This document shows positions 1 to 6,848 of a stretch of DNA of 43,013 nt, in pieces. Source of the stretch: Candidatus Lambdaproteobacteria bacterium (GTDB lineage: Bacteria > SAR324 > JACQKK01); assembly GCA_016199125.1 (NCBI GenBank), contig JACQHH010000011.1:1-43013 (forward strand), written 5' to 3'. A program made the translations under genes and the position numbers. The stretch's first letter is position 1; every line of letters begins with the position of its first letter. The notes beneath the pieces were generated by a model. It had not been told where the DNA came from. It saw only the letters and a list, made by a program, of their open reading frames with translations, and made no database searches.

Positions 1-537
1 TCGCTGGAGGTGGTGGTCTATGCCCGGGAGTACGCGCTGGCCGGCGACCTGCTTAAGCAGGACGAGCCGCTGCTGGTGCAGGGCCGCGTGAACGTGCGCG
101 ACGAGGAGATCAGCGTGCGCGCCGAGAAGGTGCGCTCGCTCAGCGAGTACCGGGCCGGCCAGGCCCGCCGGCTGCGCATCGCCCTGGACACGCCCCTGCC
201 CGATGAGCCCATGCGGCGGCTGGTAGGGGCCCTGGCCAAGTCTCCGGGCCCCTGCCAGGTGGAGTTGGCCGTGCTCACCGCCTGTGGGCACCGCGTGATC
301 CTGGACTGCGGGCTGGGCGTGGTGCCCACGGACGAGCTGCTGGAAGAGCTGGAGATGCTGCTGCCGACGCAGGCCCTGAGCTTTGCGTATGCCCAGGAGG
401 GCGTCACGCGCGACGATGGCTCCGCGGGGCGCGGGGGTCGGCCCCGCCCTGCGCCTGCGCCAACGCAGGACGCGCCGCCCGCCCTCGGGCAAGGCTATCG
501 CTACGTCGGCGAGGAGGACGCGGTCGGCATGGGTTGA
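1..537 (+). CDS. dnaE: DNA polymerase III alpha subunit, C-terminal fragment (5' end lies outside the window)
   Basis: Frame 1 is open from base 1 (LEVVVYAREYALAGDLL...). The pattern LLVQGRVNVRDEEISVRAEKVRSL...VELAVL...VILDCG...VPTDELLEELEMLL is typical of the DnaE OB-fold/C-terminal region. Pro/Ala-rich tail, stop at 535-537. Confidence 0.7.
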   Translation, partial: SLEVVVYAREYALAGDLLKQDEPLLVQGRVNVRDEEISVRAEKVRSLSEYRAGQARRLRIALDTPLPDEPMRRLVGALAKSPGPCQVELAVLTACGHRVILDCGLGVVPTDELLEELEMLLPTQALSFAYAQEGVTRDDGSAGRGGRPRPAPAPTQDAPPALGQGYRYVGEEDAVGMG

Positions 538-791
538 GCCGTCTCCGGCCAGCGCCCGGCGTCGCTCCCGCACCCTGGAGCGCCCTGCATCGTTGAGCAG
601 CACCCGCACGCCGGCCCCCGCTTACTGCGCAGGGGTCCCGCGGTGCCCCGCGCCATTCCCCATGCAATCGTCGCGACACTTGCGGACCCGGCGGCGGACC
701 GCGCGCTCGTCGTCCTCCCGTTGCCGCTCAAGTTTCCGCACCGTGCGCCGATAGTCCGGGCAGGGGATCCGATCAACCACAAGAGGACAAC

Positions 792-1334
792 ATGCGACAT
801 CTACTGGGCGTGATCGCGGCCTGCGCGATCGTTTTATGGGCCGCAACGCCAGCCCACGCGTGGTCCATCTCCGCAGACGTGCCCTACGCCAGTTCCGTCA
901 CGTTCAAAGGAACCAACAGCGGAGACCTGAACTTTGCAGCCAGCTCGCTGGGCGGCAACATCGTCAGCATCGGCACGCCCTGGTGGGTGGGGGTGACCCT
1001 TGAGAACTACGCGACCCATCTCCGCGACGTACCGGCGGACATGGGCCAGAAGATCGACCTCGAATTGACCACGACCATGAACAGCGTCTTCCTCGATCTG
1101 CCGACGCCCCTGATCAGCGTGGTGCTGGGCTACGGCCAAGGTACGATTGAAGAAAAGCGGCTGGATGCGAAGTGGAACGCCAAGCAGTACTTCGCACGCC
1201 TGGGACTCAACATCAGCGCCTCGTTCGAGGTGCATGCGGGCCTGAACCGCGGCTTGGCCACCTATGACCAGGAAGGCGGCACGCCCGATTTTGAATTCGA
1301 AACCATGACTGCCGGCCTCAAATTCAACTTCTGA
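792..1334 (+). CDS. small secreted beta-barrel outer-membrane protein, paralog A
   Basis: Signal peptide MRHLLGVIAACAIVLWAATPAHA. Alternating beta-strand pattern and C-terminal ...GLKFNF ending in Phe (outer-membrane beta-signal). AGAGGA RBS upstream of ATG 792. Paralog of 1569..2102. Confidence 0.7.
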   Translation: MRHLLGVIAACAIVLWAATPAHAWSISADVPYASSVTFKGTNSGDLNFAASSLGGNIVSIGTPWWVGVTLENYATHLRDVPADMGQKIDLELTTTMNSVFLDLPTPLISVVLGYGQGTIEEKRLDAKWNAKQYFARLGLNISASFEVHAGLNRGLATYDQEGGTPDFEFETMTAGLKFNF

Positions 1335-1568
1335 GCGTCGCCGCCTCCGCCATTCCCCGAGGCTGCGACATATCCCCAGACGGGCGGAATTCCCTTTCAT
1401 ACCAATTCAGTACGTCATGCGAGCGAGAATTTTCGCGGCCCTGCGGGAGGGTCGGGGCGCGAATTTCGCATCTCGCACAGGATAGGCCCCAGCGCGCGGT
1501 CAGCGTGCAGACGCAGGCCCTGTGCGCCGCCGAGGCGGCAAGGAATTTCACAAGAAAATAGAGGACCC

Positions 1569-2102
1569 ATGCGGCATCTTCTGGGCGTCATCGCGGCATT
1601 CGCGATCGTATTGTGGGCCGTCACGCCAGCCCATGCCATTTCGCTCTCCCTCGATATTCCCTATTCCAATACGATCACCAGCACCGGCCCCGGCGGCGAG
1701 ACCTACAACGGCGAATCGGTCGGCGGGTACATCGTCGGCATCAGCACGCCCTGGTGGGTGGGCGTATCGCATGAGGACTACCAGAGCACAATCTCGATTG
1801 ACGTTGGAGCGCCCACGAAATTCGAACTCGATGTCAGCACGGTCATGAACAACGTGTACCTGGAATTGCCGGTACCGGTGATCAGCGCGGCCATCGGCTA
1901 TGGCGTCGGGACGTTGACCATCTCGGCAAGCGGCGATTCGGACGATTACGCCGCCACGCAGTATTTTGCGCGCCTGGGGCTGAGGCTGGCCATGATGTGG
2001 GATGTGCACGTGGGTTACCACACCGGTACCGCCACGGGTTCCGGCACCAACGACGATCTCGAATTCACGACCATGACGCTGGGTGTCGGCGCGAGCTTCT
2101 GA
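1569..2102 (+). CDS. small secreted beta-barrel outer-membrane protein, paralog B
   Basis: Signal peptide MRHLLGVIAAFAIVLWAVTPAHA (21/23 identical to paralog A). Shares the GTPWWVGV/ISTPWWVGV, QYFARLGL and EFxTMT motifs. C-terminal ...GVGASF. AGAGGA RBS. Confidence 0.7.
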   Translation: MRHLLGVIAAFAIVLWAVTPAHAISLSLDIPYSNTITSTGPGGETYNGESVGGYIVGISTPWWVGVSHEDYQSTISIDVGAPTKFELDVSTVMNNVYLELPVPVISAAIGYGVGTLTISASGDSDDYAATQYFARLGLRLAMMWDVHVGYHTGTATGSGTNDDLEFTTMTLGVGASF

Positions 2103-2385
2103 CCCTGTTCCGATCCAGCGGCCGGGCCACCGGATCGCCGCAAGGCGGCCGGGGCCCTCCCCCGCATGTGCGGCAAGCGCCGCACACACGGCGTGTTGCA
2201 CCACCCGCAAATGCCCCGCAATCGATTCGTTTGACCGCTCCTCCTGGGACGGATAGATTTTTCGTGTGCAGGTGCAGGTCGGCCATCGAGGCTGCCCGCG
2301 CCAACACGACGCCGGCGCACACCCGCGCCGACCGACCGCGGCACACTTGATCCCGCCCGACACGCCCCAGACGTGCAAGGAGCCC

Positions 2386-3231
2386 ATGCCCAAGCGCACA
2401 CCCACGCCCACCCGGCAGACCGTCACGCTGGACGGCGTGGAGCTGCAATTGGCCCACCCGGACGAGTTCACGCCGCACTGGGTCGGTCAGGAGGAGCTGG
2501 TCAAGCAGCTCGCCGCCGCGTGGCTGGTCGTGGACGAGGCGGATCTGCCGCTGAATCCGCGCCTGATCGGCAAGCCGGGCGTGGGCAAGACCTCCCTGGC
2601 CTATGCCACGGCGCGCGCGCTGGGGCGCGAGGTGTACCTGTTCCAGGCCACCATGGACACGCGCCCGGAGGACCTGATCGTCACCCCCGTGATCTCCGAC
2701 AATCAGCGCATCAAGTACGTGGCCAGTCCCGTGGTCACGGCCATGCTGCGCGGGGGGGTGTGCATCGTGGACGAGGGCAACCGCATGGGCGAGAAGTGCT
2801 GGGCGTCCCTGGCGCCGTTGCTGGACGCACGGCGCTACGTGGAATCCATCGTGGCGGGGATCAAGATCAAGGCCCATGCGGACTTCCGCTTCTGCGCCAC
2901 CATGAACGAGGACGCCTCGACCTTCGACCTGCCGGAATACATCCACTCGCGCCTGCAACCGCAGATCGTGGTGGATTTTCCCGAGGCCGACGAGGAGCTG
3001 CGCATCCTGCGCGACAACCTGCCCTTCGCCGACGAGGACGTGCTGCGCTACGTGGTGGAGTTTCTGCAGCGGGCGCACCACAGCGACGAGCCGTTCACCG
3101 TGCGGGACGGGATCAACGTGGCCCGTTACGCCCTCAAGCTGATGCGCGGCAACGGGGCCCATGCGCTGGCGGCCTACCGCCAGTCGCTGGCCATGGTGCT
3201 GGGCCAGGACGTCATGGGCTTTTCCGAGTAG
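2386..3231 (+). CDS. AAA+ ATPase, CbbQ/NorQ/MoxR-like (AAA_5 type)
   Basis: Walker A GKPGVGKT, Walker B CIVDEGNR, sensor region FCATMN. ATG 2386 is preceded by CAAGGAG. The track ORF start at 2266 is an upstream extension without an RBS. Confidence 0.85.
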   Translation: MPKRTPTPTRQTVTLDGVELQLAHPDEFTPHWVGQEELVKQLAAAWLVVDEADLPLNPRLIGKPGVGKTSLAYATARALGREVYLFQATMDTRPEDLIVTPVISDNQRIKYVASPVVTAMLRGGVCIVDEGNRMGEKCWASLAPLLDARRYVESIVAGIKIKAHADFRFCATMNEDASTFDLPEYIHSRLQPQIVVDFPEADEELRILRDNLPFADEDVLRYVVEFLQRAHHSDEPFTVRDGINVARYALKLMRGNGAHALAAYRQSLAMVLGQDVMGFSE

Positions 3232-3292
3232 CCTCCCGGCGATTGACGGGGCGCACACGCCGGCCCATCGCCATCGCTCCCGCTCCCACCAT

Positions 3293-4747
3293 TCAGTGCC
3301 CGCGACGCCGCAGCAGCAGCACGCGCGAGATGCCCAGCGAGCGCCAAGCGGCCTGCGGCCCGGCTGCGGGCGATGCCATGGCCGGCGTGGCGGGCCGGGC
3401 CGGCGCTACGGGCTTGGCGGGCGTGGACGCCTGGGGCGCGGAGGCCAGGGTCGGGAGCCGGTAGCGCATGGCCGCCGGCAGCGCCGCCGCGCCGGCTGGG
3501 GCGCCCGGCGCCACCGTGGGGGGCATTGCCCGCAGGCGGGCGATCTGCGCCGGGCCGGCGCGATTGACCCACACGTTGAGCAGCACGGACAGCAGGCACA
3601 CGCCGCCCATCAGCAGATACAGCAGGTGGAAGTCGATCACCTCCAGCAGCACCCCGCCGATGTAGGGAAACAGCCCCGCCCCGCCACCGAAGAAGCCGTG
3701 ATAGAGGATGGCCGAGCGGCCCATCTCCTCGGGCCGCTGCAGCTCGAACAGGCGTGCCGTGCTGGTGGGGCCCAGCAGTCCATGGCTGACGCCCGCCACG
3801 ATCCCGCACGCGCCCAGCAGGATATAGCCCTGGGAGAATCCCAGCAGCAGGAAGCTCAGGGCATAGCCCGCGAGCGCCGTGGAGATCATGGTGGGCGTGC
3901 CCAGCCACAGCACCAGGGGGCGGATGGTGGCGCGGGTGAGCACCGAGCCGATGCCGTAGCCCGCAAACAGCACGCTGGCATAGGCCAGGCCTAGCGAGGC
4001 CGTGTAGTTCTTGCCGAAGGCGAAGAAGATGCCGAAGGCCCCGCCGAACACCGTGGTGATGGCGAGCATGAGCCACGTGGCGCGGCGCGAGAGCAGCCGC
4101 AACTGCCCCACGAACGAAGGCGCCCCCGCCGGGGCCATCTGGCTGTGGGGCACCAGCAGAAACAGCACCAGCGCCACCATGGCGATGACCTGCATGCTGA
4201 TGAACACCGGCAGGTAGGCGTCGGGGTCGGCCGGGTTGGCCTGGAGGTTGAGAATCATCTCCGAAACGAACGGCCCGGCATAGGCGGCAAACACGAAGCC
4301 GATGCCCATGTAGGCCAGCACTTCGGTCCTGCGCTGCGGCGGTCCCAGCTCCACGGCCCAGGCATAGACCAGTGGAAAGCCCAGGCCCGAGGTGACGCCG
4401 TGCAGGATGCGCACGGCAAAATACCATTCCGGGGCCGCACGGTAGGCCGCGATGGCGATGGCGTTGCCCACCAGGAAGGGCACCATGTAGGCCGTGACCA
4501 ACCACTTGCGCTTGCCGGCGTCCCCCAGGTGCCCCAGCAGCACCACGCTCAGGAACGTCGCCAGCCCGAACGAGCCGGCCACGGCCCCGTAGAACGACTC
4601 GCTCGTGCCCCGCAGCTCCAGGTAGTAGGGCAGCAGGAAATAGCCGTTGTAGTTCATGTTGAACAGCATCGCGCCGAAGAACAGCAGCACGAAGTTGCGG
4701 TCGAGCAGGCGCTGCGCGGGAGCGCTGGCTGCGGGGGCGGTGTTCAT
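3293..4747 (-). CDS. MFS transporter with Pro/Ala-rich C-terminal tail
   Basis: Starts MNTAPAAS... (ATG complement at 4745-4747, AAGGG RBS). About 12 hydrophobic spans with an MFS-like GHLGDAGKRK loop between TM2 and TM3. The remainder of the 910-aa track ORF is antisense to the LLM gene. Confidence 0.85.
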   Translation of the reverse strand: MNTAPAASAPAQRLLDRNFVLLFFGAMLFNMNYNGYFLLPYYLELRGTSESFYGAVAGSFGLATFLSVVLLGHLGDAGKRKWLVTAYMVPFLVGNAIAIAAYRAAPEWYFAVRILHGVTSGLGFPLVYAWAVELGPPQRRTEVLAYMGIGFVFAAYAGPFVSEMILNLQANPADPDAYLPVFISMQVIAMVALVLFLLVPHSQMAPAGAPSFVGQLRLLSRRATWLMLAITTVFGGAFGIFFAFGKNYTASLGLAYASVLFAGYGIGSVLTRATIRPLVLWLGTPTMISTALAGYALSFLLLGFSQGYILLGACGIVAGVSHGLLGPTSTARLFELQRPEEMGRSAILYHGFFGGGAGLFPYIGGVLLEVIDFHLLYLLMGGVCLLSVLLNVWVNRAGPAQIARLRAMPPTVAPGAPAGAAALPAAMRYRLPTLASAPQASTPAKPVAPARPATPAMASPAAGPQAAWRSLGISRVLLLRRRGH

Positions 4748-6034: not shown

Positions 6035-6206
6035 CCACGGCGGCGCGCCCCGTAGCTTGTCATACGCGCGGGGGCGTGTACGCTGAACTGGGATGCGGCG
6101 TGAGCCGTGGTGCGCCGCCCGCGCGGCGGCGCGGCCAGCGCCGACTCCATGTCCATCTCCCCAAGACGATCCCGCGAGCTGTCAAACTCTCCAGCGAGGA
6201 TGGCCC

Positions 6207-6848
6207 ATGAGCGAGCCGGTGAAGATCCAGGTGTTTTCCGATTACGTCTGACCGTGGTGCTACCTCAGTACCGGGCGTATTGAGAAATTGCAGCGGGAAT
6301 ACGACATCGAAATCGAATGGGTGCACTTTCCCCTGCACCCGGAAACCCCGCAGGAAGGCGTGACGCTGGAGGCGCTGTTTGCCGGGCGCGACTACGACAT
6401 CGCGGCGGCGCAGCAGCGCATGCAGGGCCTGATGCAGCAGGAGGGCCTGCCCTACAGCGCGCGCAACATGACCTACAACAGCCGCCTGGCGCAGGAACTG
6501 GGCAAGTGGGCCGACAGCATCGGCCGGGGCGAGGCGCTGCACGACGCGCTGTTCCGCGCGTTCTTCGTGGATCTGGTCAACCTGGCCGAGCCGGACAACC
6601 TGCTCAGGATCGCGGCGTCCGTGGGACTGCCCGTGGACCAGGCGCGCGAGGTGCTGGAACAACGCACCTTCAAGGAGCAGGTCAACCGCGATTGGGCGCT
6701 CTCCATGCAACTGGGGATCACCGGCGTGCCCACCTTCGTGGCCGGCGGCTACAAGGTGGTGGGCGCCCAGCCCTACGAGGTGCTGCAGCAACTCATGCAG
6801 GCCGCCGAGGCGCGCCGGCGCGACGCCCCGGCCGGCGACGGCGAGTGA
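6207..6848 (+). CDS. DsbA/FrnE-like thiol:disulfide oxidoreductase with in-frame TGA (6249-6251) at the first redox Cys; probable selenoprotein (U-P-W-C)
   Basis: ATG 6207 with GAGGA RBS 6 nt upstream. Translation is MSEPVKIQVFSDYV-TGA-PWCYLSTGRIEKLQREYDIEIEWVHFPLHPE..., in the same frame as track ORF 6288..6848. FSDxxCPWCY is the canonical DsbA/FrnE N-terminal active site. C-terminal GITGVPTFV is the cis-Pro loop. Confidence 0.7.
6264..6284 (+). promoter_or_regulatory. candidate bacterial SECIS hairpin for the TGA at 6249
   Basis: CUCAGUAC/GUAUUGAG forms an 8-bp stem (one G-U pair) with apical loop CGGGC. The stem starts 12 nt after the TGA and the loop starts 23 nt from the U of UGA. Confidence 0.5.

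Follow-up and report, generated by a model that had tools for sequence, protein, structure and literature searches.

A family of 'DsbA-like' selenoproteins (COG2761) with a UxxC motif and a predicted bacterial SECIS (bSECIS) was reported from the Sargasso Sea metagenome in 2005 (PMC1088965), and members were then described in genomes such as Anaeromyxobacter and Desulfovibrio (PMC1794560). A 2026 review lists these proteins as DsbA-like form 1, with the Pfam domain PF01323 and the UxxC motif (PMC13188914). Selenocysteine (Sec) occupies the first position of that motif, homologues with Cys are widespread, and a bSECIS-like hairpin lies directly 3' of the UGA. The gene described in this work shares these features with form 1 and differs from it in nothing essential, the present instance coming from a 69% GC genome. 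It lies at positions 6207–6848 of the window, the whole stretch of 43,013 nt of DNA that was analysed. With a probability of roughly 0.9, as judged from sequence comparison, it encodes a FrnE-type (COG2761, DSBA-domain) thiol-disulfide oxidoreductase with a U-P-W-C site, in which the UGA at 6249–6251 is recoded as selenocysteine. Each of the sequence-level marks of form 1 was found, namely PF01323, a UGA at the first position of CxxC, homologues with Cys and orthologues with TGA. The gene is therefore another member of the DsbA-like UxxC family, whose biology has been known since 2005, and not a new kind; its placement in form 1 would follow from COG/Pfam and motif, not from sequence comparison with the published AACY01178397 and NIP15863.1.

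The coding sequence, which like its component features is on the forward strand, comprises 213 codons including that for Sec15 and ends at a TGA stop (6846–6848). From an ATG at 6207–6209 the frame reads MSEPVKIQVFSDYV, the TGA at 6249–6251 and then PWCYLSTGRIEKL..., and continues uninterrupted to the stop. A Shine-Dalgarno-like GAGGA (6196–6200) lies 6 nt before the ATG, and similar motifs are likewise placed in related loci (GAGGAG in L001, GGAGG in L002). Direct reading of the sequence and its translation thus confirmed the original observation that this ATG and its ribosome binding site open a frame running through the TGA. Another in-frame ATG at 6093, which opens a 52-codon ORF ending at the same TGA (6093–6251), was considered as the start and rejected, given that all homologues start at the position of the ATG at 6207 (M-S/A/T-E-P...).

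The read-through product contains a complete DSBA domain (Pfam PF01323, residues 7–197, profile positions 2–190 of 191, E = 2.6e-36). Among solved structures, the nearest relative is FrnE of Deinococcus radiodurans (E = 7e-29 over residues 2–208), a cytoplasmic disulfide oxidoreductase/isomerase (PDB 5cnw/5cp1). The two proteins are homologous over their full length, have the N-terminal SD-x-x-[C/U]-PWCY site and the GVP loop in common, and are both without a signal peptide. When they are aligned, SDIACPWCY of FrnE lies over SDYV-TGA-PWCY of the window, with the TGA falling on the first, nucleophilic Cys of CPWC exactly as had been claimed. Within the redox motif (TGA CCG TGG TGC, 6249–6260), P16, W17 and C18 are invariant in the homologue alignment (A1). 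The same holds for T172, G173, V174 and P175 of a T-G-V-P-T-F loop (residues 172–177, 6720–6737), which in FrnE is matched by ITGVPFF, and the window protein also retains the remaining residues that are invariant in the family. We take this loop to occupy the cis-proline loop position of thioredoxin-fold enzymes. FrnE differs from the window protein in having Cys, not Sec, at the active site and in being 260 aa long as against 213. It presumably also carries a second Cys pair in a C-terminal tail. Such a tail is absent from the window protein, in which Cys18 is the only Cys besides Sec15; its last residue is 213, and the alignment extends no further than residue 226 of the 260 in FrnE.

The active site is reached at residue 15, directly after MSEPVKIQVFSDYV, and a hydrophobic leader is absent. 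A signal peptide would not fit ahead of an active site in this position, and from this a cytoplasmic location is inferred. The periplasmic DsbA of Escherichia coli shares the thioredoxin fold with its inserted helical domain and shows weak similarity in the C-terminal half (E about 1e-5), but it has a signal peptide and a CPHC motif, whereas the window protein has no signal peptide, carries UPWC and groups with the FrnE branch. The window protein thus appears to belong to the cytoplasmic FrnE branch and should not be taken as the periplasmic disulfide-forming enzyme. No NCBIfam model scored at or above its cutoff; a partial C-terminal match to NF041057, which describes a thioredoxin-like (seleno)lipoprotein family, ranked highest with 44.9 bits against a cutoff of 190.

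The ORF list had started the gene at an internal TTG (6288–6290), a false start that leaves a 186-aa product without the active site, and the expectation that standard annotation would truncate the gene was borne out in public data. Exactly this 186-aa product, starting MQREYDIE..., is stored in a public protein collection (P0001), and related proteins are truncated as well (P0002, P0006, P0062, P0106 and others). These entries and the output of the ORF callers are what speaks for the 186-aa product being the real protein and the upstream frame a coincidence. Such a product would lack the first 27 residues, and with them the entire redox motif and the initial strand of the DSBA domain, and the truncated calls in relatives begin at arbitrary, differing positions. 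Furthermore, protein-level conservation of the 14 codons upstream of the TGA extends over 80 loci, and the start, 14 codons ahead of the TGA, is conserved too. Translation from the TTG is on these grounds exceedingly improbable as an account of the gene.

The distribution of the TGA was assessed in a genome scan with one genome per bacterial species, in which the best 80 of more than 600 matching loci were examined. The Sec15 codon was TGA in 77 and TGT or TGC in three of these best 80 species-representative loci, and TGA was also present in L001–L004. The carriers are labelled as Alpha-, Beta- and Gammaproteobacteria, Rokubacteria/Methylomirabilota, SAR324, Acidobacteriota, Planctomycetota and (Candidatus) Cybelea. 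Loci with TGT or TGC were L020, L038, L060, L086, L087 and L088, and among the best 120 database proteins were 97 with Cys, five with Trp and two with Gly at the Sec15 site and 15 that were N-terminally truncated. The proposed alignment with Cys- and Sec-containing FrnE/DsbA homologues was run, and a pairing of Sec with Cys was seen at the TGA codon.

The nearest relatives with both the TGA and the same hairpin are L001 (85% amino-acid identity, labelled SAR324_JACQHH01) and L003/L004, and they come from independent samples. This, together with the codons typical of the Sec forms (AGT, CGT and ATT) that the window carries and that the Cys forms checked never keep all together, argues against a sequencing or assembly error in a true TGC or TGT codon. 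The window is a single metagenome-type contig, which is the point in favour of an error, but the probability of one is judged to be negligible. L001 and L003/L004 also share the gene order of the window, consisting of an AAA ATPase, an MFS protein, a luciferase-like protein, DSBA, two aminotransferases, two SDRs and an enoyl-CoA hydratase. Given that this neighbourhood is conserved only among close relatives, it offers no functional lead.

A few entries depart from the Sec/Cys pattern. In one metagenome contig (L085, 498–500; protein P0005) the TGA is replaced by CGA (Arg) and the SECIS hairpin is fully intact; this is either a sequencing error or a recent mutation that inactivates or alters the product. 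The Sec-type peptide LST[GV]RIEK occurs in just two 'Cys' proteins, P0003 and P0056, both of which stem from a catalogue of read-assembled proteins. The Cys in these two may be an artefact, which is suspected for P0056 because the other members of its cluster are truncated to 176 aa, as is typical of TGA forms.

For the segment upstream of the TGA, 80 coding sequences of the TGA form were analysed. Exactly 14 codons precede the TGA in 76 of them, and 75 start with ATG. Nucleotide diversity at the first, second and third codon positions is 0.343, 0.144 and 0.469 for codons 2–14 and 0.228, 0.204 and 0.491 for the rest of the gene, so that the pattern of third above first above second position is common to both. 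The 13 codons upstream of the TGA therefore appear to evolve as coding sequence. No additional stop or frame disruption was present in any of the 80 sequences extracted. This bears on the possibility that the gene is a decaying pseudogene, in which a nonsense mutation in the catalytic Cys codon has abolished function. A single substitution turns TGY into TGA, the CGA of L085 shows that the site can mutate, and no Sec machinery was seen in the 43-kb window. These points are set against the TGA in 77 of the best 80 of more than 600 species-level loci, across phyla, the substitutions of coding type on both sides of the TGA, the intact catalytic residues and GVP loop, and the synonymous-site constraint on the hairpin set out below. 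The coding-type pattern upstream and the lack of any other stop exclude a decaying pseudogene, a reading that the comparative data effectively refute and that we consider very unlikely. Orthologues with further frame disruptions and no conserved hairpin had been named in advance as evidence for such decay; none of the 80 was disrupted, and the hairpin was kept.

The published bSECIS model describes a loop of 3–9 nt, an upper stem of 4–16 bp and a UGA-to-loop distance of 16–37 nt (PMC13188914, Fig. 2). It further expects one of the first two loop bases to be G, as a rule with G or U after it, and a minimum free energy (MFE) of at most −7.5 kcal/mol (PMC13188914). In the window, CTCAGTAC (6264–6271) pairs with GTATTGAG (6277–6284) around the loop CGGGC (6272–6276). 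The resulting hairpin (6264–6284) has eight pairs including one G-U, begins 12 nt downstream of the TGA and occurs in the MFE fold of 6249–6310, and its geometry as originally described was reproduced both from the sequence and in that fold. With a loop of 5 nt, a stem of 8 bp and a UGA-to-loop distance of 20 nt (6252–6271), it falls within the published limits. The loop C-G-G-G-C provides the G followed by G or U, and the MFE of −7.5 kcal/mol for the hairpin alone is borderline, lying exactly at the threshold. The spacing and G-containing loop that had been described as expected of a bacterial SECIS are thus in agreement with the published model, and the synonymous constraint and compensatory changes described below add to this. 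Bacterial SECIS elements, such as that of E. coli fdhF, and the bSECISearch consensus have in common with the window hairpin a stem-loop that lies within the coding region a short way 3' of the UGA, a small apical loop carrying G and then G/U and a UGA-to-loop distance within 16–37 nt (PMC13188914). The window hairpin is unrelated in sequence to the fdhF element, and its stability only just reaches what the model demands.

Taken by itself, the window sequence gives an unremarkable fold, with a z-score of −0.42 against shuffles in this 69% GC DNA and an MFE of −16.1 kcal/mol for the 62-nt context containing the hairpin. It is therefore only by comparison with related loci that the hairpin can be told from chance. 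Across 70 distinct TGA-form sequences, 92.9% of the stem cells are paired. The inner seven pairs are kept in 66–70 of the 70 and the eighth, which the window has, in about half. Compensatory changes were found at two pairs in this set, from U-A to C-G in four sequences and from A-U to G-C in one; the support from covariation thus comes from five sequences because the stem is invariant at most positions. Among 78 loci, 77 have G or T as the third base of the loop, the exception being L026 with the loop GGTCC and an extended stem.

The codons that form the hairpin are constrained beyond their meaning. Codons 20–25 are near-fixed in the TGA forms (CTC in 99%, AGT in 94%, ACC in 99%, GTG or GGG, CGT in 100% and ATT in 90%), and invariant Leu, Arg and Thr residues elsewhere in the same alignment use four to six codons each. 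No other run of six codons in the gene has so little third-position diversity (0.059 versus a median of 0.483). The codon for Arg24 is CGT in 80 of 80 Sec forms and CGC in all six Cys forms examined. In these six Cys-form loci only three to six of the eight stem pairs are left and the hairpin is broken. The peptide encoded by the segment is constant in the TGA forms (LST[GV]RIEK) and varies freely in the Cys forms (LASARVAR, LGSARVAR, LSTARIER and others). Third-position diversity, compensatory changes and loss of the hairpin in the Cys forms together indicate conservation at the level of the RNA beyond what the protein needs. This comparative evidence argues strongly for the hairpin at 6264–6284 being a bSECIS-type element. 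In Rfam, neither a scan of the whole window at gathering thresholds nor a permissive scan of 6200–6340 (E up to 10) gave a match, and therefore no curated SECIS model covers the hairpin.

A competing 7-bp hairpin can be drawn nearer the UGA (6255–6275), in which UGGUGCU pairs with AGUACCG around the loop ACCUC. It overlaps the 5' arm of the SECIS stem, with which it is mutually exclusive, and its bases are also invariant across the family. It was rejected as the real element given that its loop is 10 nt from the UGA, there is no G in the first two loop positions, and the fixed CGT and ATT codons and the co-variation of T21 with A31 would be left unexplained.

Genes for Sec insertion were sought in the window and in related loci. 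In the 43-kb window, ARAGORN found no tRNA, and hence no tRNA-Sec, Pfam scans of 30 large ORFs gave no SelA, SelB or SelD domains, and tblastn with the SelB of L032 gave no match. A tblastn search of the window with E. coli SelD likewise gave no match, a weak negative given that the query was approximate. Two related loci, both Burkholderiales-like MAG contigs, do carry such genes. L032 (region 1–3609) contains the C-terminal part of selA (1–519; TIGR00474, E = 3e-54), a complete selB (516–2423; TIGR00475, 433.7 bits versus a cutoff of 242, with the SelB winged-helix domains present) and a tRNA-SeC with the anticodon TCA (2376–2471), and the TGA-form gene begins at 3001, ~530 bp downstream. 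L042 (1–1290) contains the end of selB, a tRNA-SeC (68–163) and then the TGA-form gene at 689. The TGA-form gene is physically linked to selB and selC in these two relatives, and in L032 to the end of selA as well.

The linkage also bears on whether the UGA is read as a standard amino acid, either under a reassigned code (Trp in table 4, Gly in table 25) or by near-cognate read-through. Public gene callers did give W in five homologues and G in two, and this is what the reading has in its favour. However, the one W case checked (P0045, locus L089 1364–1366) is a TGA in the DNA of an otherwise ordinary gene, and Trp or Gly at the position of the nucleophile would inactivate a CxxC enzyme. The conserved SECIS-type hairpin and the adjacent selB and tRNA-Sec in relatives, with the selA end in L032, likewise argue against it. 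Among 23 likely genes of the window, a rough gene set, the stops are TAG in 11, TGA in 11 including the FrnE-like gene, and TAA in one. Since TGA ends 11 of the 23, it is not reassigned in the window, and decoding as a standard amino acid is considered highly improbable. The share of TAG looks high for 69% GC DNA, an impression that may not hold given the rough gene set. A scan of the window for other in-frame TGA codons with coding-like flanks returned two ordinary gene ends only, using an insensitive filter that did not pick up even the DsbA gene, whose segment upstream of the TGA is too short for it.

Incorporation of selenocysteine, the preferred reading, had originally been put forward as probable. 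It is supported by the position of the TGA in the active site, its conservation, the coding signature upstream, the constraint on the hairpin and the linkage to sel genes in relatives. With the ribosome at the UGA, the hairpin at 6264–6284 would recruit SelB-GTP carrying Sec-tRNA(Sec), bound at the apical loop, and in this organism Sec15 would be inserted instead of termination taking place. In the protein, Sec15 would act as the attacking nucleophile, and a selenenylsulfide with Cys18 would replace the disulfide in cytoplasmic thiol-disulfide exchange. The gene flags the organism as a likely selenium user.

A wider and speculative possibility, to which we give a low probability, is that the Sec form is a single lineage with a near-invariant 21-nt SECIS that has passed by horizontal transfer into at least eight phyla. 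It might travel in some genomes with selA-selB-selC as a minimal 'selenium cassette' (L032, L042), and the 5' end up to the hairpin might be a site at which small elements insert, regenerating it (the three copies in L069).

The value of the locus is practical, consisting of a correction to annotation and a sharply defined, family-specific SECIS signature. Many orthologues in public collections are N-terminally truncated without the active site or carry W, G or R at the Sec position, and neither NCBIfam nor Rfam has a model that recognizes the family or its SECIS. Entries with W or G stored at this position are P0045, P0064, P0066, P0087, P0109, P0115, P0028 and P0095, which we take to be TGA translated under other codes (4 or 25). 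A family-specific model for re-annotation could draw on the near-invariant hairpin CTCAGTACCGKGCGTATTGA 12 nt after the TGA, with the Sec-form-specific codons AGT for Ser, CGT for Arg and ATT for Ile and the peptide LST[GV]RIEK as further markers.

In L069, the first 74 nt of the Sec-DsbA gene are present in three copies (670–743, 1915–1988 and 3001–3074, within the region 670–3074), which diverge within the 3' arm of the SECIS hairpin. Two inserts of ~1.1–1.2 kb lie between the copies and carry unassigned ORFs with CxxC-rich motifs. The arrangement looks like insertions that regenerate the 5' end of the gene. A tRNA-Leu(cag) adjoins the first of the copies and likewise adjoins the intact gene in L083.
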